A DNA stretch of 64,000 bases. Source: Patescibacteria group bacterium (lineage in GTDB: Bacteria > Patescibacteriota > Minisyncoccia > Phycocordibacterales > Phycocordibacteraceae). The notes beneath the pieces were generated by a model. That model had not been told where the DNA came from. It did not search any database and saw nothing but the letters and a program-made list of their open reading frames with translations. How positions within the stretch are numbered: the first letter of the stretch is position 1; the number at the start of each line of letters is the position of its first letter. This document shows, one piece after another, positions 24,740 to 63,355 of this stretch. The stretch lies in the NCBI GenBank assembly GCA_018826905.1, contig JAHJYC010000005.1, positions 46,681 through 110,680 on the forward strand. The letters run 5' to 3'. The translations under genes and the position numbers were made by a program.

Positions 24740-24815
24740 GCCGGGATAGCTCAGTTGGTAGAGCAACGGTTTTGTAAACCGTAGGTCGCGAGTTCAAGCC
24801 TCGCTCCCGGCTCCA
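24740..24815 (+). tRNA. tRNA-Thr (anticodon UGU), with an encoded CCA end.
   Basis: Manual cloverleaf: acceptor GCCGGGA/TCCCGGC, D-arm GCTC-AGTTGGTA-GAGC, anticodon stem ACGGT/ACCGT with loop TTTGTAA, T-arm GCGAG-TTCAAGC-CTCGC, 3' TCCA. Confidence 0.85.
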
Positions 24816-31705: not shown

Positions 31706-32485
31706 TTAGTCCTCAATATCAATGCGTACTGAACGAGAGTTGTTTCCTTCGTTAGACTCGCTTATGTCGCGGTCTGGGTCTACGACGATAGTAATCTCAC
31801 GATCGTCTCCTTCGCGTGTTTGGTCAAATCCAAGGACGTAATCAATGCGCTCTCCAGGCTTGAGTGACTCTTGCTTGCCTGAGTGGAAGGTATAGCTACG
31901 GCTCGTTGGGAGCTCTGCATCAAATTCAAAGCGTCCTGAGATGTTTGTACCACGGTTAGCGATGGTGAACTTCACCGCACCACGCTCTCCATCTGGAACA
32001 CGGCTTGAAGCACGGAACGTGTCAGTGTCTGAAGACGTAAGGTATCCAGTAGTGATGTTTTCAATCACAAGGTCAGGGAGACCAAAGAGGGGAGCTGGAG
32101 TTGTTCCAACCTGTACGACACGCGTGACGGGAGTTCCTGGTGTTGGTGTTACCGGTGTAGTGTCTGGTGTCTCTGTTGCAGGAGGAGTTGTTGTTGCTGC
32201 AGGGATATCGTCTCCAAAGGGAACAGTCTCTGTGGGTGGAACCACAACGAGATCTGTGTCCTCAGTGTTTGGCTGGAATGCAGATGAGAAGTACACCGCA
32301 GCTGAACCGATGCGAGAAATAGCAGACGGCACAAAAGTTGCTGCATAAATGGCAAGCGCCATTCCAATAAGAATAAGGACGATAAATCCAACGATTGCAA
32401 GACCGTTTACCGCTGCACGGCGAACAGGCCTCTCCGAAGTTCGTAGTGTGGTCAGTTCCATATGCGCATTGTTTACCACACCCAT
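31706..32485 (-). CDS. N-terminally anchored secreted protein with a Thr/Pro-rich linker and a CARDB-like domain.
   Basis: TM helix. 'TTPPATETPDTTPVTPTPGTPVT'. CARDB end motif 'DPDRDISESNEGNNS'. Confidence 0.65.
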   Translation of the reverse strand: MGVVNNAHMELTTLRTSERPVRRAAVNGLAIVGFIVLILIGMALAIYAATFVPSAISRIGSAAVYFSSAFQPNTEDTDLVVVPPTETVPFGDDIPAATTTPPATETPDTTPVTPTPGTPVTRVVQVGTTPAPLFGLPDLVIENITTGYLTSSDTDTFRASSRVPDGERGAVKFTIANRGTNISGRFEFDAELPTSRSYTFHSGKQESLKPGERIDYVLGFDQTREGDDREITIVVDPDRDISESNEGNNSRSVRIDIED

Positions 32486-32614
32486 TATTCTTTGTCAACC
32501 ACCCCCACAGAAAGCGCTTCAGCGAATGTTCAGGTACCTGTAGGTATACTGAAGACCAGAATACCAGCGGACTTGACAATATGGGTGTTGTGGTGTAAAT
32601 ATGAGTAGGAGCCT

Positions 32615-33277
32615 ATGGCACTTGTCACAAATACCGTACAGCTGATTCGCGCTTCAGGGCGCGTATATGCTAAGAAATGGAGCTTTCTTCTCGCTTTTCT
32701 AGCGGTGTTCTTCGTATCATTCTCGGTTCTCGCGATCCTAGACTTGGTACCAGAAGCACCTGCCACAATCGTTGAGGAAGCAGTGGTAGTGCCACAGGAC
32801 GCATTGGTTGCTTCTGTGGTGTCAGCAGTACCTGAGAATCCTGTTCGTGTGGAGATTCCAGATATTGATCTTGATGTAACAATCAAGAACCCTGAGAGCA
32901 CAGATGTTGAGACCTTGGACGCTGCACTCCTTACAGGTGCAGTGCGTTATCCAACGTCAGCACAGCTTGGAGAAGAAGGGAACGTAATTCTCTTCGGACA
33001 CTCAAGCTACCTGCCGGTGGTAAACAACAAGGCGTTCAAGGCATTTAATGCAATTCAGAACCTTTCAGAGGGAAACCGCATTCTCGTACATAGTGAGGGG
33101 ATGACGTATGTCTACTCTGTAACGGACGTAGCTTCTGCAGACGCTGAGTCTGCTGCTATTCCACTTACAAAGACCGGACACACGCTAACACTCGCTACAT
33201 GTGATTCGTTTGGAAAGAAGACGGATCGTTTTGTGGTGGTCGCTCAACTTGTTGAGAGCTATCCGCTCGGAAGCTAG
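32615..33277 (+). CDS. Sortase-family transpeptidase.
   Basis: N-terminal TM helix. His motif 'ILFGHSSY'. Catalytic 'TLTLATCD' (TLxTC). Downstream conserved Arg ('RFVVVAQL'). Confidence 0.7.
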   Translation: MALVTNTVQLIRASGRVYAKKWSFLLAFLAVFFVSFSVLAILDLVPEAPATIVEEAVVVPQDALVASVVSAVPENPVRVEIPDIDLDVTIKNPESTDVETLDAALLTGAVRYPTSAQLGEEGNVILFGHSSYLPVVNNKAFKAFNAIQNLSEGNRILVHSEGMTYVYSVTDVASADAESAAIPLTKTGHTLTLATCDSFGKKTDRFVVVAQLVESYPLGS

Positions 33278-33372
33278 ACTTCTTGGCTGATAGGTCGCTG
33301 CAAGTAGCAGGCAGGACCAACTGTTCTTCAACCGCCGCCAATCAGGCGGCTCACAAAAGGAAGGAACTCGCC

Positions 33373-34278
33373 ATGCGAGATCTTAACCGACGTGCGCTGC
33401 TCCTTGCGGGCGGCGCATCCTGCGCACTGGGCGTCACTCCAGGCTTCGCCGGGCAAGACCCGACGTGGGAAAACTGGGGTGGAGCACCCTACGGAACCAG
33501 TTTCAGTGACGTGACTTCGGACACCAAGTTCGACTTCGCGTTGCAAGAACTCGGCATTCCCGAACCGCTCCGCCAGCCCTTCAAGGATCTGGTGCGCGCA
33601 AACCCGACTCCCGAGCCGCTCGTGTACCTGGTTCCCAACCAGGTCCTGAACGGCATGATGAGCGGTACTGATTCGCGGCACCCGAGGCCGCACGTCATGC
33701 GCAACGTCACCGTCGGCCGGACTGTCATCTCCCGGGGTGTCGTCCGAGCAGCGGAAGCTTGGGAATGGCGTCTCTCTCACGAGGGTCGCCTGTACCGGCT
33801 GATTCTTCCCAAGGTCTGCTTCAACTGGTCTCTGATCATCGAAGAAGAACCCGGAGAAGAACGCTGCGTCGAGCTGCACTTTAACGCCTTCGTTGGCGGC
33901 AATGTGCGCTGGGGCGTGGGCAGTTTGGACGGCGCGCTTGCGCCGAGCAGCTGCAACGCCATCCGGCAAGGCGACGGGTCTTGGAAGGCTTGGGGCGGGG
34001 AATGTGACGAATGCGTGCCGGCGGTTGGCTACATCAGTCAAACGCTGCGCGGAACGGCACAGGTCCCGCATCGGTACCTCTACGACGTCACGGAGCGTCA
34101 TCAAACGATCCGGTTTTCAACCGAGATCTGGGAGAAGACGGTCTACATCTGTCTGGAGGACGCGAACGGCAGAAGGTCCTGCGGGGTGTACATGCGCCCC
34201 GAAGACTGGAACGGTCGCTATTCCGCCGACATCCCTGATTCCATGTGGATCTTGGACGAAGGAAACTGTCCCGCATAG
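33373..34278 (+). CDS. Hypothetical secreted Cys-containing protein with a twin-arginine (Tat)-type signal peptide. It sits inside a GC-rich (~62-65%) compositional island.
   Basis: Strong SD 'aaggaaggaa' upstream of ATG 33373. 'MRDLNRRALLLAGGASCALG'. GC3-rich codons (ctg/ggc/ttc/gac) unlike the neighbouring genes. A terminator-like nested hairpin lies at 34287-34330. Confidence 0.6.
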   Translation: MRDLNRRALLLAGGASCALGVTPGFAGQDPTWENWGGAPYGTSFSDVTSDTKFDFALQELGIPEPLRQPFKDLVRANPTPEPLVYLVPNQVLNGMMSGTDSRHPRPHVMRNVTVGRTVISRGVVRAAEAWEWRLSHEGRLYRLILPKVCFNWSLIIEEEPGEERCVELHFNAFVGGNVRWGVGSLDGALAPSSCNAIRQGDGSWKAWGGECDECVPAVGYISQTLRGTAQVPHRYLYDVTERHQTIRFSTEIWEKTVYICLEDANGRRSCGVYMRPEDWNGRYSADIPDSMWILDEGNCPA

Positions 34279-34390: not shown

Positions 34391-36526
34391 TTGATTATGG
34401 AACTCATGAAAGAACACATTGCATACGCGAAGACGCGCCCGATTATGGTTGCGATATTTGCTGTGCTCGCAACCATATCCATTGGTATGGCTGTTGCGTA
34501 CGCAACAGGATTCACTGTACCTGAGCCAACACAGGCACAGGTTATTGGACCTCCTTGTTGTACTCCGCCACCACCACCACCCCCTCCTCCGCCACCACCA
34601 CCACCACCACCCCCGCCACCGCCACCGCCACCGCCACCACCATTGCCGGTGCCGCAGTGTGAGCTTTCTGCAGCCCCAACTCAGGTATCTGTTGGAGGAA
34701 CCTCAATACTTACGTGGAGTACGGTTAATGCAACAAGTGCATCTATAGATCAGGGAGTTGGTCCAGTAAGTCCTGTAGAGGGCGGATCAGTGCCAGTAAC
34801 GGTTACAGGCAATACAACCTATACACTTACCGCAACTGGTCCTGGAGGAACCGTAACCTGTACTGCAGCTGTAACGGTGCCACCGCCACCAGATGAACTA
34901 CCAGTGTGTACGCTTGTTGCAAATCCAACGGCTATTCAGATTGGAGGATCTTCAGTACTTACGTGGACTACACAGAACTCAGTATCATTTGTTATTGACC
35001 GTGGAGTAGGGTCAGTAACTCCAGTTGCTGGAGGAGATGTGTCAGTGTCACCATTAGTGACTACTACCTATACCGGTACTGCAACAGGAACGAACGGGCA
35101 GACAGTTACCTGTGCTGCGACGATTACAGTAAGTATTCTCCCGCCAGCGCCTGTTTGTACTCTCGTCGCAAATCCAACGACCATAAACCCAGGTGGCTCC
35201 TCAACACTCACCTGGACTACTCAGAATGTAACGAGCGCCACTATTGATCAGGGAATCGGAGCCATCACTCCAGTTACTGGGGGATCAGTACCCGTATCTC
35301 CTTCAGTCACTACGACGTACACGCTTACGGGAACTGGAACAAACGGACAGACTGTTACGTGTCCTGCAACGGTTACCGTAACCACCAATCCTGTACCGAT
35401 CTGTACTCTTGTTGCTAATCCAACCACAATTGATCGTGGAGATGAGTCAACGCTTACATGGACAAGCTCCAATGTAACCTCGGGATCCATTAATCAGGGT
35501 GTAGGAACTATTACTCCAGTAGCTGGTGGAGACACACGCGTCTCTCCAACAAGTGACACGACCTATACCGCAACCTTCACGGGTCCATATGGAGATGTCA
35601 CCTGTACTGCAGCGGTTGATATCCGCAGCACCACTGGAGGAGGGGGAGGAGGCGGAGGACGTCGTAGTCCTCGCGTTGTCCTAGACTCACTTAAGCAACC
35701 TCTAGAAGAGCCACTCTCGTTCGTGTATCTCTCTGAGACTCCATATACTGGTCTTGATCTAGGACCATGGGGAACTGCGATCTACTGGCTCATGCTTATC
35801 GGATGGAGTGCTGCTGCTGCGTACCTTGTACTCTTCAACGCACTACCGTTTGTAACCGCTAGAGCACGAAGCTTTGGAGGGAATGTGAAGCAGGCACTAA
35901 ATGTTGAGCCAATTGAGATGAGTGCACATGCTGCACCAGCGCATGACACACACACTGCTCATCCGTCTGCTCCAACGCCAAGTCGTCCAGAAGGATTCAA
36001 TCAACGTGATGGATTCCGTTCATTCGCAGCGAACGAAGGCCTCACCATTGATGACATTGTAAAGGGACTCTCACGTCAGATTGAGGAGCGTCAGGACACA
36101 CGTCCAGAGGCAACTCCAGCATACACAGAACGTACTGCTGAACCTGTCGCACACGCAGCCCCTGTTCGTGAGGTGCCTAAGGCAACACATGAGCCAGTGT
36201 CTGAAGACGTTCGTGACTTCCTCGCAGCCCTTCTTGCAGGAGATCGTGATACGGTCTTCGGTATGATCCGCAACCTCGCTCGTGAGGGTGAGGACACGGA
36301 GCTCTTCGTCTCACATGCAGCATGTGCTCTTGATGACGCATACCGCGCATGTATTGATGGCACTACCTGTCACCCAGATATTGCTGAGCTCACGAGTGGA
36401 TGCCACCCATCATTCCTTGAGCGCATTGTTACCTCACTCACGACTGCTGTTGATGGAAGCTATTCAACCGGTATCACCGGTGTGAAGATGGCTCTCACAC
36501 GTGCACTCGGCGTAGTGGCTGGATAA
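34391..36526 (+). CDS. Large surface protein. Its parts in order: N-terminal signal-anchor, a ~29-residue poly-Pro tract, four tandem ~83-aa Ig-like Cys-pair repeats, a poly-Gly tract, a second TM helix, and a ~230-aa C-terminal domain with a Cys/His cluster.
   Basis: TM 'IMVAIFAVLATISIGMAVAYA'. (CCN)n at 34565-34645. Repeats 'TLTW.T.N.TSA.IDQG.G..TPV.GG...VSP...TTYT.T.TG..G.TVTC.A.VTV' x4. 'GGGGGGGGRRSPR'. TM 'AIYWLMLIGWSAAAAYLVLF'. The first ATG is at 34397. Confidence 0.75.
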   Translation: MIMELMKEHIAYAKTRPIMVAIFAVLATISIGMAVAYATGFTVPEPTQAQVIGPPCCTPPPPPPPPPPPPPPPPPPPPPPPPPPLPVPQCELSAAPTQVSVGGTSILTWSTVNATSASIDQGVGPVSPVEGGSVPVTVTGNTTYTLTATGPGGTVTCTAAVTVPPPPDELPVCTLVANPTAIQIGGSSVLTWTTQNSVSFVIDRGVGSVTPVAGGDVSVSPLVTTTYTGTATGTNGQTVTCAATITVSILPPAPVCTLVANPTTINPGGSSTLTWTTQNVTSATIDQGIGAITPVTGGSVPVSPSVTTTYTLTGTGTNGQTVTCPATVTVTTNPVPICTLVANPTTIDRGDESTLTWTSSNVTSGSINQGVGTITPVAGGDTRVSPTSDTTYTATFTGPYGDVTCTAAVDIRSTTGGGGGGGGRRSPRVVLDSLKQPLEEPLSFVYLSETPYTGLDLGPWGTAIYWLMLIGWSAAAAYLVLFNALPFVTARARSFGGNVKQALNVEPIEMSAHAAPAHDTHTAHPSAPTPSRPEGFNQRDGFRSFAANEGLTIDDIVKGLSRQIEERQDTRPEATPAYTERTAEPVAHAAPVREVPKATHEPVSEDVRDFLAALLAGDRDTVFGMIRNLAREGEDTELFVSHAACALDDAYRACIDGTTCHPDIAELTSGCHPSFLERIVTSLTTAVDGSYSTGITGVKMALTRALGVVAG
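34565..34645 (+). repeat. Coding (CCN)n microsatellite (poly-proline).
   Basis: 'ccgccaccaccaccacccc...ccgccaccgccaccgccacc' seen directly. Confidence 0.85.
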
Positions 36527-52155: not shown

Positions 52156-52812
52156 ATGTTGAAATTCCATCTCATCACACTATTTCCTGACGCATGTGAC
52201 GCGTATCTTTCTGCGTCTATTTTAGGACGGGCCCGTACCAACAAAAAGATAGCGGTCTCGTACCAGAGCCCGAGAGACTTTGTAACAAACAAATGGGGGA
52301 AGATAGACGAGCGTCCGTATGGGGGAGGTCCGGGTATGGTTATGACCGCGCTCCCCGTGGTGAAGGCGGTAAAGAAAGCCTTTGGAAGACGAAAGGGAAC
52401 AAGACTCGTGGTGTGGTTCAGTCCCTCTGGAAAGCAGTTTACAAACAAGGACGCAGACCAGCTCGCTACATATGACGAGATAGCTTTTGTCTGTGGCAGG
52501 TACGAAGGTATTGATGAGAGAGCATTTAAAATGCTGAAGACAATGGCACCTATAAAAACATTTGCTGTAGGAGAGGCAGTATATACAGGGGGAGAAGTTC
52601 CTGCACTTGCGATGGTTGATGCGATAACTCGCAGACTTCCGGGAGTGCTCGGGAAAGATGAATCAGTTGAGGAAAGACGCGTGGCTTCGCCTGCAGTCTA
52701 CACGCGTCCTGAGAATATTGAATGGGAAGGGAAGAACTATCGTGTTCCTAAAGTCCTGCAGACAGGAAATCATGCCAAGATTGATGAGTTCAGGACGAAA
52801 AAGAAGAAGTAG
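52156..52812 (+). CDS. trmD: tRNA (guanine37-N1)-methyltransferase.
   Basis: 'MLKFHLITLFPDAC' TrmD N-terminus. SPOUT fold motifs. 218 aa. Confidence 0.85.
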   Translation: MLKFHLITLFPDACDAYLSASILGRARTNKKIAVSYQSPRDFVTNKWGKIDERPYGGGPGMVMTALPVVKAVKKAFGRRKGTRLVVWFSPSGKQFTNKDADQLATYDEIAFVCGRYEGIDERAFKMLKTMAPIKTFAVGEAVYTGGEVPALAMVDAITRRLPGVLGKDESVEERRVASPAVYTRPENIEWEGKNYRVPKVLQTGNHAKIDEFRTKKKK

Positions 52813-52859
52813 CCAAAAAGTGTTTTATATAGTTTAATCGGCTCGGAAAGGGGGGCGCC

Positions 52860-53210
52860 ATGTCCTTATTTGACGAAGTCTACGACACGCTCTCTGGGAG
52901 ATCCTGGAGCAGTGTCTCAGAAATTCAGGAAGCGGTGCGAACGCAGCGCTACCTGAAACGGATCCACAGGCCGGTCTCGCTTTTCCGGAGAATACTTCCG
53001 GCCTTTGCGGATATGTTTGAGACACCCACTGAGGCTTCTGTGCAGTTTGTCTTGCAGCACTTCAGTCGCAAGACGTGGGTCTCGTGTCGCGAACGCGTCT
53101 CTGGGAACCCGGAGTACTCGCTTACCCTCAGGGGGCAAATGAAGACAGGCCCAGTGCAGATACGCAGGGACGATCTGGGAAGACCAGAAGGGCCGAGCGG
53201 CTACACATAA
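52860..53210 (+). CDS. Hypothetical protein encoded in GC-rich island 2.
   Basis: SD 'aaagggggg' 5 nt before ATG 52860. GC-rich codon usage. No recognisable motif. Confidence 0.45.
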   Translation: MSLFDEVYDTLSGRSWSSVSEIQEAVRTQRYLKRIHRPVSLFRRILPAFADMFETPTEASVQFVLQHFSRKTWVSCRERVSGNPEYSLTLRGQMKTGPVQIRRDDLGRPEGPSGYT

Positions 53211-53312
53211 AGGACGGAATCTCTCCGTCCTTTTTCATTGCACAACAGAGACGCTAGATTGACAATATCCCTATATTTGTTATAGTTTAAGGGAACCTGG
53301 CGCTGTGCCAGG

Positions 53313-53882
53313 ATGTCAAAACTGTTCCTGGGGGATCTAAGAATGCGACTACATGCACTGTTTCTGGGAGCGTGCGGCATCTTCGCCGCGCTTCTCATCG
53401 GCAAGGACGATCTGAGCGGAATCATTCTGACGGGCGTCGCCACTGTGGCGCTCTTCCTATGCTTCTTCCTTCAGAGCGACACGGCCAGCAGCTGGACCGA
53501 TATGGGCAAAGGGCCGACGCCCTACGCCTTCTCGTTCCTGACCATGAGCGTGGCGTCCATATCCATAGACGGAAGTCTGTGGGCGGGGATGTTCACCTTC
53601 GCGCTCTCACTCGGCCTGATGTTGGCAACTGCGGTCGCCATCTACGCTCAGGGTGCGTGCACCTGCGAGCGCATCAATTGGCGCGACGTGGGCCGGATCT
53701 ATCGCACACTCGGCCTGCCGATCATCGGCATGGTCCTGGTGCACTATCTGGTCGCTACCGACCGCAGCGTGGCCTCGGGGTGCATCGTTATCGCCGGCCT
53801 CACTTGGCTCGCGATGAAGACCGCCCCGCAGGAGCCGTTTGTTCGGCTGCCCGCATACTGGGCTCAACGCACCGCATCTTGA
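53313..53882 (+). CDS. Hypothetical polytopic membrane protein (~5 TM helices) in GC-rich island 2.
   Basis: Hydrophobic segments 'LHALFLGACGIFAALLIG', 'IILTGVATVALFLCFFL', 'MFTFALSLGLMLATAVAIY', 'LPIIGMVLVHYLV', 'CIVIAGLTWLAM'. GC ~62%. Confidence 0.5.
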   Translation: MSKLFLGDLRMRLHALFLGACGIFAALLIGKDDLSGIILTGVATVALFLCFFLQSDTASSWTDMGKGPTPYAFSFLTMSVASISIDGSLWAGMFTFALSLGLMLATAVAIYAQGACTCERINWRDVGRIYRTLGLPIIGMVLVHYLVATDRSVASGCIVIAGLTWLAMKTAPQEPFVRLPAYWAQRTAS

Positions 53883-53904
53883 TTGCATCCCAGCAATCCC
53901 GCAA

Positions 53905-53931
53905 GCGGCTCTCTTCGGAGGGTCGCTTTTT
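53905..53931 (+). terminator. Terminator-like GC hairpin with a UUCG tetraloop and a T5 tract, closing the GC-rich island.
   Basis: 'gcggctctc ttcg gagggtcgc ttttt' (9-bp stem including two G-U pairs). Confidence 0.55.
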
Positions 53932-54122
53932 CCTTTTCCACAGCCGCCTTGACCACCCCCTCATCTTCACGGTATATTAAGGAAACGAGATTGAGTAACG
54001 GGGGATAGAGGGCAAGAGAAAAACAAGTGCGATTTTAAAAACAGCGTCTCCATAACGAGGGACGCGGCTCATGCATACATGAGCCCGTTTGGCGTTTGGA
54101 GCTACGATAATACAGACCTGAC

Positions 54123-57100
54123 ATGCAGCAAAAAAAGCTCGTGCCAAAAACATTCGGTGCATACCGCGCCCCGCGTGTTGAGTTTCCTGACCTGGTAGGC
54201 CACCAGCGGGAATCTTTTAATTGGCTTTTGGCCGATGGAATCAAGGAGCTCTTTAAGGAGTTTTCTCCAGTGCAAGATTATTCAGGAAAGAAATTTGAAC
54301 TCCGCTTTGACGGATTTGAAGTAGGCGATCCTAAGGGAACTGAGGAAGAGGCACGTGAGAACATGCGTACCTATGAAGCTCCTCTTAAGGCGTCTGTTAC
54401 GCTCGTAAACAAGACGTTTGGATCTGAGAAGACTCAGGAGATTTTCCTCTCTGATATTCCGATGATGACACCTCACGGTAGTTTCATCGTATCTGGAGTT
54501 GAGCGTGCTATTGTCCCTCAGCTCGCCCGTTCGTTCGGTGCATTCTTTGTTGCTGAAGAAACAAAGGGAAGAAACTTCTTTGGTGCAAAACTTATTCCTG
54601 CACGTGGTGTATGGATTGAGATTGAATCTGATTCAGACGGAGCTATCTTCGTTAAGATTGATCGCAAGCGTAAATTCCCTGTCACGAACCTGCTCAGCGT
54701 ATTTGGTGCAGGAACACGCGAGGACATTCTTAAGAAATTTATTGGCGACGAGACTGCAACGAATGCAGTGAACGCAACACTCGCGCACGATACTGCGCAG
54801 AGCGTAGAAGATGCATATGTAGAAATACACCGCCGCATGCGCGACGGTGATTTGGCGACCCCAGACAATGCTAAGCAGTACGTGAACGCACTCTTCGCTG
54901 CTGATAGGTACGATCTTTCTAAAGTAGGACGTCATCGCCTGAATGCTCGTTTCTCACTTCCAACTGATAAGAAGTCTCTTGAACAGCGTGCTCTTACGCT
55001 AGACGATCTTCTTCGTATTGTTGCTGAGATCGCTCGCATGAACCAGGATCCTCAGGCTGTTCCAGATGATATTGATCACCTCGGCTTCCGTCGTGTTCGT
55101 TTCGTTGGAGAACTTCTTCAGGCTCGTATGCGTGTCGGTATGTCTCGCATGAAGCGAAACATCCAGGACCGCATGTCTACCATTGAGTCTGAGACTTCTC
55201 TTCCAATGGCATTCGTAAACCCACGTCCTCTCTCAGCATCAGTTCGTGAGTTCTTCACAGCGAACCAGCTTTCACAGTTCATGGACCAGCAGAACATTCT
55301 TGCTGAGCTTGAGAACATGCGCACCCTCTCAGCACTTGGCCCGGGAGGACTGACACGTGAGCGTGCAGGCTTTGAGGTTCGTGACGTGCACCCATCACAC
55401 TACGGACGTCTTTGTCCAATCCACACTCCAGAAGGAGCGAACATCGGTCTTATTCTTCGTCTTGCGCTACATGCTCGCACAAACGAGTTCGGTGTTATTG
55501 AAACTCCGTACGCAAAGGTAACGAAGGGAGTGGTGACTGAAGAGATTGAATACCTCAATGCTCTTGATGAGGAGTCATACGTTATTGCGCACGCAGCTAC
55601 CCCTGTTGACGCAAAGGGACGTATTGTTCCAGACACCATTGAGGCTCGTAAGGGAGGAGAACCGGCAGTGGTACACCGTGAGGAGATCAACTACATTGAT
55701 GCGTCTACGTATCAGATGTTCTCAGCTGCTACTGCGATGATTCCGTTCGTTGATCATGATGATGCGAACCGTGCACTCATGGGTTCAAACATGCAGAAGC
55801 AGGCAACACCAGTCCTCATTCCAGAGGCACCACTCGTTGCTACCGGTATTGAAGGACACGCAGCACGTAACACAGGACGCCTCATCATTGCTGAAGAGGC
55901 GGGAACGGTGTCATACGCCGACGCACGTCGCATTGTTGTCACGCCTTCAAACGGGAAGGATCATGAGTACAAGCTTCAGGGCCTCACTCAGACCAACCAG
56001 AACTCTGCATTCATGCAGCGCCCTATCGTAAAGACAGGAGACAAGGTGAAGAAGGGAGATGTGCTTGGAGACGCATCTTCTTCAGACCAGGGTCAGATGG
56101 CACTTGGACAGAACGTCCGTGTTGCCTTCATGAGTTGGAGTGGAGCAAACTACGAGGATGCGATCATTGTCTCTGAGAGACTAGTGGAAGAATCTAAGTT
56201 CACTACCGTACATATTGAAGATTTTGAGTGTGCTGTACGCGACACAAAGCTCGGAGCTGAAGTAACCACACACGACATTCCTAACGTCGGAGAACTTCGT
56301 TTGAAGAACCTTGATGAAGAAGGCGTTGTTCGTATTGGTGCTGAGGTACGACCTGGAGACATCCTCGTTGGAAAGGTAACGCCTAAGGGAGAGACACAGC
56401 TTACTCCTGAAGAGCGCTTGCTTCGTTCAATCTTTGGAGACAAAGCAAAGGACGTGAAGGACACCTCACTTCGTATGGAAGGAGGAAAGCGTGGCCGCGT
56501 TATTGGCGTACGTGTCTTTAGTCGTGAGAGTGGAGACCAGCTTGAGAGCGGTATTATCAAGAAGATTGTCGTTACCGTTGCACAGGTGCGCAACGTCTCA
56601 GTGGGAGACAAGCTTGCTGGTCGTCACGGAAACAAGGGAGTTATCTCTCGTGTGCTTCCTGTTGAGGACATGCCATACGACAAGGATGGAAATCCAGTGG
56701 ACATTATTCTTACTCCACTTGGAGTGCCATCTCGCATGAACCTTGGACAGATTCTTGAGTTGCACCTTGGACTTGCGGCACACACGCTTAACTACCAGGC
56801 AATTGTGCCTCCGTTTGCAGGAGCAACTGCTGACGAAATTCGTGCAGAGCTTGAGACTGCTGGCTTTGATCGCTCTGGAAAGATGCGTCTCTTTGATGGA
56901 CGAACCGGAGAAGCCTTTGCTCAGCCAATCTCAGTTGGATACATGTATGTTCTCAAACTCCATCACATGGTGGAGGACAAGATCCACATGCGTTCAATCG
57001 GTCCGTACAGCCTCATTACCCAGCAGCCGCTCGGAGGAAAGGCACAAAACGGAGGACAGCGCTTTGGAGAAATGGAAGTATGGGCACTCCTTGGATACGG

Positions 57101-61088: not shown

Positions 61089-61106
61089 AAATAAAATCCC
61101 TCTCGC

Positions 61107-61595
61107 TTACCACGAAGGGGATTTGATCAACACGAAACGAGGAGCATTAGATGCTTCAAAGACATAGTAGAGTTTTTCTGGATCCAAAACCCGCGTATCC
61201 CACGTGAGAGATTCGGCGATATCTGGCGGCTCAATAAATGAAGACCTTAAGATAAATCGTCTGAGAGCCGCCTCGTGATGGATTTCTGGGGTCTGGACCC
61301 CTTGCTCCCATAAAGAAACATCCGACTTGCGGACCCCAAAGAAAGAAGCGAACTCTTTCTTGGAAAAACCCAAGTGCAGCCTAAGAAATTCTAATTCTAC
61401 AGGGACGAATCGCCTTTCTTGTTTGGCGATACACTTGGACACCTCTTTGTTCAGGGCATGAACATGCTCCCACTCAAATGTCCCGTTGGGTAACACTAGG
61501 TTCTGTAGGTAAACAGGGAACCCGCAGAGATTGTACACATGTGCGTAGGTAACCACTTGTTCCCCTTTCCAGAAGAATCTAAAAAGAACGTACAT
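61107..61595 (-). CDS. Hypothetical protein with a central XRE-family helix-turn-helix motif.
   Basis: 'LRLHLGFSKKEFASFFGVRKSDVSLWEQG'. It is a lone minus-strand gene between rpoC and dnaG. Confidence 0.55.
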   Translation of the reverse strand: MYVLFRFFWKGEQVVTYAHVYNLCGFPVYLQNLVLPNGTFEWEHVHALNKEVSKCIAKQERRFVPVELEFLRLHLGFSKKEFASFFGVRKSDVSLWEQGVQTPEIHHEAALRRFILRSSFIEPPDIAESLTWDTRVLDPEKLYYVFEASNAPRFVLIKSPSW

Positions 61596-61678
61596 TTTTT
61601 ATACTGTATTTCTTCCTGGATGACAAACGGCTCACCCAGAAGCTAAGTAAAGTAAGGTACGGTACACTAAAGATATCC

Positions 61679-63355
61679 ATGGATACCGTCCAGAAAATAA
61701 AAGAGAAACTCTCCATACTTGAAGTGGTGGCGCCCTATGTAAAGCTCGCTAAGTCTGGCCGGAACTATAAGGGCCTTTCTCCGTTTAATAAGGAGAAGAC
61801 ACCCTCTTTCTATGTGAATCCGGAACGAGGCACTTACTACTGCTTCTCTTCAGGACAGGGAGGAGACCAGTTTGAATTCATTCAAAAGATGGAGGGAGTG
61901 GATTTTAAAGGAGCACTCAAAATACTTGCAGAGAAAGCTGGTGTAGAAATTGTATATAGTGCCAATAAGGAGGACAAAGGGAAGCAAGACAAGCTGTTTG
62001 AAGCAATGTCACGTGCAGAGAACCAATACGTATCTTTGTTAGACACTAAAGGACCTGCCTATGCGTACGCTCTCTCCCGTGGGTTGTCTGCGGAATCTAT
62101 TAAAGACTGGAACATCGGATATGCCCCGGATACTTGGCGCACTCTACTTGAATCTTTAGAAGCCTCAGGTTTTACAAAACAGGAACTCTCTGCTGCAGGA
62201 CTTGTAAAAGAAGCTGACGAGAAGAAGGGGACATGGTATGACCGGTTCAGAAACCGTCTCATGTTTCCAATTAAAGATATTGCAGGACGAACTGTTGCGT
62301 TCACTGGGCGCGCACTAGATCCAAATGATCAAGCGAAGTACCTTAACTCACCCGAAACTGATCTCTACAAGAAATCAGAGATTCTTTTTGGTATGCATAA
62401 GGCAAAGGATGCAATTCGCACTAGGGGATTCGCCCTCCTTGTGGAAGGGCAGATGGATCTTCTTATGCTTCATCAGATAGGATTTACAAATACTGTTGCG
62501 CTCTCTGGTACGGCGCTTTCTCCTAAACACCTGACACTTGTTAAGCGCTATGCAGACAATCTTATGCTAGCTCTTGATAGCGATAGGGCCGGACTGAATG
62601 CGTCAATGAAAAACGCATTGGTGGCTCTCAAGTCAGGAATGCGTGTTAAAGCAGTCCTTCTTCCAGAAGGAAAGGATCCTGCAGATCTTGCAACTGAGGA
62701 TCCGAAAGAATTTACAAAGCGAGTATCGGAGGCGCTCCCTATTATTGAGTTTTTCCTTTCAGTACTTGCTGAGAGCGAGAAGGACTCGCACCGGCTCATA
62801 ATCAAAGCGGAACAAGTTGTGCTTCCGCTTATTGCAGCAATCCAAAGTCCCATGGAGCGAGAGCACTTCGTAGGTATCGCAGCCCAAAGATTAGGCTCAA
62901 CACCAGAGGCTTTGAGACAAGTGCTGGCGAGACTGCCTCAAGAGGGAGTGGAATCTACTAAAGTAGTAACAAACCAAGAGGTCCCGAAAAGTGAAAAGGT
63001 TAAACCAAGTGTCAGTTTAGGACTCTCAATTCGTGCTTTAGTTGCTGGATATCCTGAAACAGCCCTTGCAAAACGGCTCAAGGGCGAGTACGCTCGTATT
63101 ATCGGCGCACCGTTTCCGGATGAGCCTCCTCCCGAACAGGTTATTTTCGAGGCAGGAATCGCTTATGGCGAGGCACCGGATGAATTGGCAGCGGACGAGC
63201 TCATAACTGTTTTTGAAAAAACAATCCTCACGGAGCGTCTCAGTGACGCGACCGTGCGTCTTCGCGTAGCGGAAGCTTCTCAGAATAAGCAAGAAATTCA
63301 AGACGCGAGTGAAGCATGCCGCTCTCTCGCACAGGCACTCGCCACTTTTAAATAG
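61679..63355 (+). CDS. dnaG: DNA primase. The Toprim and RNA-polymerase core are intact, but the N-terminal zinc-binding motif is degenerate.
   Basis: 'PFNKEKTPSFYVNPERGTYYCFSSGQGGD' aligns to 'CPFHNEKTPSF...YHCFGCGAHG' with 3 of 4 Zn ligands replaced. Toprim 'LVEGQMDLLMLHQIG...LALDSDRAG'. Confidence 0.85.
   Translation: MDTVQKIKEKLSILEVVAPYVKLAKSGRNYKGLSPFNKEKTPSFYVNPERGTYYCFSSGQGGDQFEFIQKMEGVDFKGALKILAEKAGVEIVYSANKEDKGKQDKLFEAMSRAENQYVSLLDTKGPAYAYALSRGLSAESIKDWNIGYAPDTWRTLLESLEASGFTKQELSAAGLVKEADEKKGTWYDRFRNRLMFPIKDIAGRTVAFTGRALDPNDQAKYLNSPETDLYKKSEILFGMHKAKDAIRTRGFALLVEGQMDLLMLHQIGFTNTVALSGTALSPKHLTLVKRYADNLMLALDSDRAGLNASMKNALVALKSGMRVKAVLLPEGKDPADLATEDPKEFTKRVSEALPIIEFFLSVLAESEKDSHRLIIKAEQVVLPLIAAIQSPMEREHFVGIAAQRLGSTPEALRQVLARLPQEGVESTKVVTNQEVPKSEKVKPSVSLGLSIRALVAGYPETALAKRLKGEYARIIGAPFPDEPPPEQVIFEAGIAYGEAPDELAADELITVFEKTILTERLSDATVRLRVAEASQNKQEIQDASEACRSLAQALATFK

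Follow-up and report, generated by a model that had tools for sequence, protein, structure and literature searches.

The 64-kb stretch of DNA analyzed here, called the window, comes from a genome of the Patescibacteria (Paceibacteria, UBA6241-like) with a GC content of about 48.6%. At positions 52830-53935, between trmD and rpoB, it carries a GC-rich segment with two small open reading frames (ORFs), ORF1 and ORF2, which is referred to as island 2. The preliminary description of the sequence had proposed that island 2 is a foreign cassette in a conserved neighbourhood, perhaps from the same donor as a second GC-rich patch, island 1. Comparison with related loci and genomes, numbered L001-L097, showed that the locus is native to its clade, because ORF2-family genes and a common regulatory layout recur at the same site in relatives. 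The GC-rich allele itself was, on balance, probably acquired from another, GC-richer member of the clade through homologous recombination.

The atypical composition of island 2 was borne out. The segment has 57.7% GC, compared with 48.6 ± 1.6% (maximum 53.2%) in other 1.1-kb windows (z = 5.7), and the sole other comparable GC outlier in the 64 kb is island 1 (about 33283-34278, 61% GC). The level of 60-63% that had been ascribed to the entire patch is reached by ORF2 alone, ORF1 having 56%. The excess is concentrated at synonymous sites. The GC content of third codon positions (GC3) is 0.66 in ORF1, 0.77-0.78 in ORF2 and 0.72 in the island 1 ORF, versus 0.33-0.52 in all remaining long ORFs of the window. 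Codon usage is likewise atypical and, beyond what had been described, the composition is out of equilibrium.

The gene order at the locus is RNase R (minus strand), rpsP, KH, trmD, ORF1, ORF2, rpoB and rpoC. Among GTDB species, UBA6241 (L004) is nearest, its rpoB being 98% identical. The close relatives L001-L004 and L085 also have an ORF2-family gene between trmD and rpoB. Moreover, contigs were examined for seven further lineages of the family (L086, L087, L088/L089, L094, L095 and L096/L097), and in every case the gene was located between trmD and rpoB, directly downstream of trmD and within the same RNase R-rpsP-KH-trmD ... rpoBC surroundings. These loci have in common a ATTGACAA -35 element, a 5' stem, a terminator and the rpoB promoter and leader. 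In the further lineages the identity to the window is 78-85% for trmD and 90-97% for the N-terminus of rpoB, but only 29-44% for ORF2, which evolves, or is exchanged, at a much higher rate than the neighbouring genes.

The neighbourhood is not otherwise invariant. Among 62 related GTDB loci in which both genes were found, trmD and rpoB are about 0.2 to 4.4 kb apart; in some relatives the gap is only 200-350 bp. Both ORF1 and ORF2 are lacking in L005-L022, the GTDB species closest to the UBA6241 group but outside it, and the ORF2 family was absent from the GTDB species L005-L083, in which the gap often holds other small membrane-protein genes. Small membrane proteins were also frequent among the gap ORFs listed in 14 close relatives, several of them with a similar ATTGACAA promoter. 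Additionally, a 59-residue ORF and a Fic-domain gene, a pair that resembles a Fic toxin and its small partner, lie between KH and trmD in L088 (L088:1649-2411); the 'conserved' operon therefore accepts insertions elsewhere too.

The GC3 of the ORF2 family was compared with that of the flanking trmD and rpoB genes. The values were 0.78 against 0.45-0.47 in the window and 0.84 against 0.52-0.57 in L086, differences of +0.31 and +0.29, respectively. The difference was smaller, about +0.03 to +0.11, in L087 (0.68 against 0.63-0.66), L094 (0.75 against 0.65-0.67), L095 (0.61 against 0.49-0.54), L088 (0.84 against 0.71-0.74) and L096 (0.87 against 0.76). An excess of about +0.1 seems to be general in the family; that of +0.3 in the window and L086 is not general.

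The direction of recent change was determined by polarising the substitutions on the window and L085 branches with L001. In ORF2 there were 28 GC→AT and 6 AT→GC changes (19 and 3 at third positions), while the changes in trmD were balanced (16:20, 16:17 and 26:18). This excess shows that the composition of ORF2 is out of equilibrium, with its GC content not currently maintained. The spectrum is about that calculated (4.4:1) for a sequence of GC3 0.77 relaxing to the host value of 0.43. The codon usage of trmD and KH fits the host best, whereas that of the islands is better fitted by relatives of 57-60% GC such as L088. The fit of ORF1, ORF2 and island 1 was -1.92, -1.66 and -1.66 bits per codon with L088, versus -2.06, -2.14 and -1.98 with the host.

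The sequence divergence at the locus was also found to be locally reduced. Between the window and UBA6241, third-position divergence is 0.15 in ORF1 and 0.17 in ORF2, compared with 0.42 in trmD, 0.45 in KH, 0.48 in RNase R and 0.31 in rpoB and rpoC. The block of low divergence extends from about 52700 to 54500. Furthermore, the ancestry of the segment is mosaic. Of the relatives compared, L085 diverges least from the window in ORF2 (7.2%) and the rpoB leader (3.0%), and most in ORF1 (18.1%). L084 has retained ORF1, at 15% divergence, and its ORF2 coding sequence is swapped for an unrelated 203-residue ORF with multiple helices. The replaced segment, L084:1240-1963 (Logan SRR10598221), is equivalent to window positions 53259-53935. 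Its ORF has a mismatch to ORF2 of 55%, the random level, and an hhalign probability of 0.2%; its GC3 is 0.73 compared with 0.42 in the trmD of L084. The promoter, 5' stem-loop, Shine-Dalgarno (SD) region and terminator of L084 are near-identical to those of the window right up to the coding-sequence boundaries. When the ORF2 family was aligned by hhalign with this replacement and with the small gap ORFs of L005, L006, L008, L010, L011, L017, L018 and L022, the probabilities were <=3% and no homology was detected.

Import followed by decay is favoured because of the direction of substitution, the codon usage, the reduced divergence and the mosaic ancestry taken together. Island 2 is a native, position-fixed, fast-changing accessory locus of one Paceibacteria clade, at which a GC-richer member would have donated an allele to a genome of about 48% GC by homologous recombination. 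The 3' end of trmD together with the ORF2 promoter and untranslated region (UTR) would have served as the left arm; the right arm would have comprised the terminator and, of rpoB, the promoter, the leader and the 5' part of the coding sequence. The imported allele would since have been decaying toward the AT-richer equilibrium of the host. Both the donor, a GC-richer relative, and the exchange through the flanks are what we infer from these patterns. The GC-normalised dinucleotide signature of island 2 (δ* ×1000 = 89, versus 91 ± 36 in host 1.1-kb pieces) is host-like and, at a length of 1.1 kb, agrees weakly with a donor within the clade. No integrase, transposase or tRNA target was found at the locus; the only tRNA in the window is at 24740, and the repeats in 52500-54300 are short and at chance level. 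Integrons were considered as well. No integrase-like ORF was noticed beside the locus, although no attC model was run, and the boundaries at promoter/UTR and terminator are unlike those of integrons.

Several observations weigh against this account. No donor lineage with a close copy native to a GC-rich genome was found, the members of the 90% cluster all being from low-GC genomes or short contigs. The GC3 of the ORF2 family is at or above that of the flanks in every lineage (eight of the eight measured), and GC3 is high as well in the unrelated ORF that L084 has instead, so that a process raising GC at this locus could contribute. Moreover, GC→AT changes do not clearly predominate in ORF1 (28:24 in total, 0:7 on the branch of the window). 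Constraint on synonymous sites, and not recent exchange, could be part of the reason for the lower synonymous divergence. The substitution counts are small and the L084 and L085 contigs are short. Finally, the function of both proteins is wholly inferred, and the ORF1 model is of low confidence.

The possibility was considered that a local process keeps the locus GC-rich without any import. The candidates are GC-biased gene conversion, with the locus as a hot spot of recombination, and selection that acts on mRNA structure or favours codons ending in G or C. The uniform sign of the GC3 difference, the composition of the L084 replacement and the visible recombination at the locus speak for such a process. 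Island 1 behaves in the same way at another variable locus, and recombination is reported to be positively linked to the GC content of genes across bacteria (Lassalle et al. 2015, PMC4450053). As in the GC-biased conversion described there, synonymous-site GC is raised in recombining genes independently of codon optimisation. Conversion of this kind could account for the general excess of +0.1 and for part of the remainder. However, the excess in island 2 is large (+0.3 GC3) and GC is now being lost, which argues for import and decay rather than a maintained conversion bias. In addition, the excess is inconstant between lineages (+0.03 to +0.31), L095, at about 52% GC, has the family at a GC3 of only 0.61, and other apparent surface-protein genes of the window, such as 34391-36526, are host-like with a GC3 of 0.37-0.42. 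A local process as the full explanation is rather unlikely, but it overlaps with the import account, recombination being common to both.

A more speculative reading is that the trmD-rpoB gap is a dedicated expression 'socket', in which a conserved strong promoter, 5' stem-loop, SD and terminator surround exchangeable, unrelated small membrane-protein genes. The breakpoints might then fall at the start codon and the terminator, as they do in L084, and the system might work as integrase-free cassettes, with ORF1 as a regulator acting on palindromes in the promoter spacers. We regard this as doubtful.

The cassette originally proposed, two genes from an unrelated GC-rich donor, possibly that of island 1 or the host organism of the symbiont, is improbable. 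The GC content and GC3 far above those of the host (z = 5.7), the lack of a known family for either protein, the absence of both genes from the closest species outside the UBA6241 group and the very short gap of some relatives would all be in keeping with it. However, every ORF2 homologue that could be placed belongs to the same clade and lies at the same site with a common promoter, UTR, terminator and leader, which largely refutes a foreign source; no foreign donor was found for either protein. Syntenic copies in L087, L095 and L094 are near-native in composition, so that the refuting outcome named in the preliminary description itself has largely been observed. Furthermore, the locus has no integrase, tRNA, flanking repeat or phage relative, the dinucleotides are host-like, and the terminators resemble native ones.

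The similarity of the two islands in GC3 and codon usage was confirmed, but the common donor drawn from it is not needed. The island 1 protein, about 301 residues from 33373 with a twin-arginine-like signal (MRDLNRRALLLAGGA...), has a GC3 of 0.72 compared with about 0.43 for the host, and its gene follows a CARDB-domain gene and a sortase gene (31706-33277 upstream). Homologues are 38-73% identical, plus one match of 92% covering 13% of the query. In all three lineages fetched, the homologue follows gyrB-CARDB-sortase, with flanking proteins 66-87% identical, and its GC3 is 0.61 in L090 (flanks 0.48-0.59) and 0.76 in L093 (flanks 0.57). Each island is thus a fast-evolving locus whose orthologues keep their position, with GC3 raised in those clade members whose GC is low, and a process common to both can replace an exotic donor. 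The dinucleotide test, which at 1.1 kb could not separate either island from the host, neither links nor splits the two. Immediately after island 1 is a 711-residue ORF (34391-36526) that has a run of about 30 prolines, seen as a GC spike at about 34500-34700, and repeated blocks of about 95 residues (CTLVANPT...TWT...). It has no Pfam match and is probably a cell-surface repeat protein.

That the segment is an assembly chimera, or a non-coding GC-rich structured RNA with spurious ORFs, is scarcely credible: RNA genes often account for patches of high GC in AT-richer genomes, a minus-strand ORF was called here in L001 and ORF1 is unannotated by NCBI, but independent assemblies agree, substitutions favour third positions of the plus frames, the minus frames contain stops, and ORF2 has a conserved protein family, a confident AlphaFold model and no Rfam match.

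The two ORFs that had been described were found at 52860-53210 (116 residues) and 53313-53882 (189 residues); like all features of the locus given below, they are on the plus strand. ORF1 encodes, as had been stated, a 116-residue soluble protein, which is Arg-rich. In comparisons with relatives about 85-90% identical to the window in DNA, the substitutions in ORF1 at codon positions 1/2/3 numbered 7/6/18 (L001), 11/6/37 (L084) and 9/5/26 (L085). Those in ORF2 were 12/10/31 and 12/5/24 in two such comparisons. This excess at third positions indicates that both are real protein-coding genes. The substitution counts also suggest that close ORF2 alleles are under purifying selection, with a rough ratio of nonsynonymous to synonymous rates of about 0.2. 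Arg-rich spurious ORFs in other frames are present as had been noted, for example 53372-53980. A minus-strand ORF of 179 residues, called by one gene caller in L001, was rejected on the ground that, in the window, the ORF2 region has stops in all three minus frames.

The most likely start of ORF2 is the ATG at 53343, because the SD sequence GGGGGA (53330-53335) that precedes it, the length of the NCBI protein and the starts of the homologues all agree. ORF2 would thus extend from 53343 to 53882 and encode an integral membrane protein of 179 residues. The 189-residue form from the alternative ATG at 53313 was rejected; that codon is inside the conserved 5' UTR. The NCBI record of ORF2 is MBU1292705.1 ('hypothetical protein', 179 amino acids), between trmD (MBU1292704.1) and rpoB (MBU1292706.1). 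Since these accessions are consecutive, ORF1 seems to lack an annotation in the NCBI records. The trmD, ORF2 and rpoB proteins are an identical set in four NCBI assemblies. Furthermore, the arrangement is identical in independent ENA, JGI, NCBI and Logan assemblies, which makes a misassembly unlikely.

The family of ORF2 was defined by an exhaustive HMMER search of 1.84 billion cluster representatives. Eleven representatives were found at E<=1e-3, which are 163-207 residues long and 29-92% identical. A word-indexed search of 5.8 billion proteins recovered only relatives of ORF2 that are >=88% identical, and a metagenome scan with alignment A3 found one locus only. The alignment has the motifs MPxDGS and LGLPxxGLxLVxYLVxTDRSVxSG and invariant G, D, P, G, L and P positions. 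As judged from these searches, the family is uncharacterised, previously unnamed and restricted to one Paceibacteria clade.

AlphaFold modelling of ORF2 with the family alignment gave six long helices at a mean predicted local distance difference test score (pLDDT) of 85.2 and a predicted template modelling score of 0.81. ORF2 is accordingly modelled as a compact membrane protein of six helices, the loops of which carry conserved motifs. Membrane location had been recognized in the preliminary description; the length of 189 residues and the approximately five transmembrane helices given there are replaced by 179 residues and six helices. No significant match of the model was found among PDB or BFVD structures with Foldseek (none at E<=0.001). 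The best structural match was PceB, the three-helix anchor of a reductive dehalogenase (8q4h_D), with 5% identity over half of ORF2. There is no dehalogenase context at this locus, and the match is a generic helix-bundle likeness with no evidence for a common function.

No family for ORF1, ORF2, the island 1 protein, the L084 replacement ORF or the ORF1-like protein of L088 was found in Pfam, PHROGs, PADLOC or NCBIfam. ORF1 and ORF2 had no meaningful match to PDB sequences or profiles. Scans of IMG/VR with ORF1, ORF2 and the family alignment revealed no viral relatives, and PADLOC, PHROGs, BFVD and IMG/VR together gave no likeness to anti-phage defence or phage proteins. One guess, offered with low confidence, is that ORF2 belongs to the cell envelope and that phages or host cells exert the pressure under which its alleles turn over.

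The relatives of ORF1 found in the 5.8 billion proteins by the word-indexed search are all 88-100% identical. In L088, an ORF of 125 residues between trmD and the ORF2 homologue is collinear with ORF1 (28% identity, pairwise E 4e-6) and has the same C-terminal RDDxGRP motif, which weakly suggests that it is a positional homologue. The AlphaFold model of ORF1 has a winged-helix-like order of helix-helix-helix-strand-strand, at a low-confidence mean pLDDT of 50.7 from a shallow alignment. The winged-helix assignment was checked, and neither a Pfam match at E<=1 nor a PDB profile match was obtained. A positional analogue of ORF1 in L010 had sub-threshold matches only, to HTH_24 and HTH_12 (E 0.03-0.4). 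ORF1 is possibly a small DNA-binding partner of ORF2, a suggestion made with low confidence.

The signals for expression of the two genes were largely as had been described. The promoter attributed to the upstream region is clear for ORF2, which is preceded by a sigma-70-type element, TTGACA-16-TATAGT with TG before the -10 (53259-53286, 11/12 consensus matches). The -35 sequence ATTGACAA is found at the equivalent place in L084-L088 and L094-L096. Upstream of ORF1 is a 15-nucleotide box, TTTTATATAGTTTAA (52823-52837), with a -10-like TATAGT at 52828-52833. The box recurs upstream of ORF2 at 53276-53290 (direct repeat D3, 87% identity). There was no convincing -35 element for ORF1, nor did the promoter scan call the box, which may therefore be a weak or optional promoter. 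Because no terminator separates trmD from ORF1, transcription of ORF1 by read-through from trmD is plausible; either this or the weak promoter probably drives the gene. The genes were said to have their own SD sequences; these are AAAGGGGGG for ORF1 (52847-52855, 4 nucleotides 5' of the ATG and identical in L001 and L084) and GGGGGA for ORF2.

In the promoters of several small membrane ORFs of the trmD-rpoB gap (L006, L008, L017, L094 and L096) a common -35 of the form ATTGACAA(T/A)A was observed. The spacers of these promoters contain palindromes, for example CCCCGTATGGGG, ACGCTTAAAAGGCGT, ACACCAATATGGTGT and TACCATCGTATAGTGGTA, which are possible operator sites.

A 5'-UTR stem-loop precedes ORF2 at 53296-53312 (CCTGGC-GCTGT-GCCAGG, with (A/G)TGTCA after it) and is present in the minimum-free-energy fold. 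The stem CCTGG/CCAGG, followed by (A/G)AGTCA, is kept with variable loops in L084, L086, L087 and L095, and in L096 it is altered on both sides to CCGGC/GCCGG. The folding energy is unremarkable (z -0.5), so that support for the hairpin comes from conservation only.

Two hairpins have the features of rho-independent terminators, a GC-rich stem and a T-run after a stop codon, and are predicted to act as such. That of ORF1 (53210-53237, inverted repeat I6) is AAGGACGGA-ATCTC-TCCGTCCTT followed by a T-run, with -14.7 kcal/mol and z -5.8 relative to shuffled sequences. It was detected on both strands by the terminator scan and, being A/T-flanked, could be bidirectional. The UUCG hairpin that had been noticed after ORF2 is present at 53903-53933 (AAGCGGCTCTC-UUCG-GAGGGTCGCTT, then a T-run; -17.3 kcal/mol, z -3.4 relative to shuffled sequences). 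It is identical in L084, and equivalent hairpins with altered stems occur in L005, L087, L088 and L094. The style of this terminator had been considered foreign, but native terminators of the window are also hairpins of the A-tract, GC-stem and T-tract type, and that of ORF2 is kept in relatives. ORF2 would be transcribed from its own strong promoter and end at its own terminator just upstream of the rpoB promoter. The sole match to Rfam 15 in the window was a tRNA-Thr; in 52600-54300 there were only chance-level hits (E 1.8-2.2), far below the gathering threshold, and the GC-rich patch had none even at E<=5.

Island 2 is bounded on the right by the promoter of rpoB, TTGACC-18-TATATT (53949-53978, from the promoter scan), and by a conserved, structured 5' leader (53979-54122). 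The leader is strongly conserved in related Paceibacteria, with the blocks GATTGAGTAACGGGGG and AGCGTCTCC...GAGGGACGC, a hairpin and GGCGTTT, and a box like GATTGAGT is found in many more distant relatives. RNAalifold analysis of 15 leader sequences predicted a long-range stem and two hairpins, with compensatory changes on both sides at 6 of the 18 pairs. No Rfam family matched the leader. Possibly the leader is a new RNA that regulates rpoBC in cis or acts as an attenuator, and the promoter/leader region probably served as a recombination arm. Farther downstream, just after rpoC, the DNA divergence from L004 jumps to about 40% at 61100-61700. This region surrounds a 162-residue minus-strand ORF (61107-61595) and is possibly another replaced or hypervariable spot.

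Capsule and O-antigen loci are variable loci that are exchanged by homologous recombination through conserved flanks. The vaa locus of Mycoplasma hominis is described as a divergent 'genetic islet' for a putative membrane protein (PMC524362). Island 2 is like such loci in its fixed site between conserved genes, divergent or unrelated content, mosaic structure, lack of an integrase or transposase, and membrane or surface products. It differs in having only one or two genes, in lying directly upstream of rpoB and in belonging to uncultured Patescibacteria. Moreover, the breakpoints in L084 coincide with the start codon and terminator of one coding sequence, and selection by phage or host is a conjecture here. 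With classical genomic islands it has in common the atypical GC and GC3, codon usage that is closer to that of another genome, orphan genes and signs of amelioration. In contrast to them, it has no mobility gene, tRNA target or flanking repeat, genes and regulation recur at the same site in relatives, the dinucleotides are host-like, and the source is likely to be within the clade. A variable locus exchanged by recombination is an ordinary phenomenon, found here in an unusual organism, and the mechanism first proposed for it was mostly wrong.

These results call for caution in the detection of horizontal gene transfer. When a region of a metagenome-assembled genome is strongly anomalous in GC and codon usage, contamination or transfer from a distant donor does not necessarily follow; in the present case the anomaly is the mark of a hypervariable locus that is native, with alleles that appear to move between relatives differing by about 10% in genomic GC. 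The covarying rpoB leader RNA, a by-product of the analysis, is possibly of wider interest than the island. New are a membrane-protein family without a previous name, which is associated with the rpsP-KH-trmD / rpoBC genes of Paceibacteria, and ORF1, a gene apparently missing from public annotation. Paceibacteria are thought to be episymbionts. The natural cassette replacement in L084 could aid the study of recombination and envelope diversification in uncultured bacteria, and the expression socket, if it exists, would diversify the cell envelope of these organisms.

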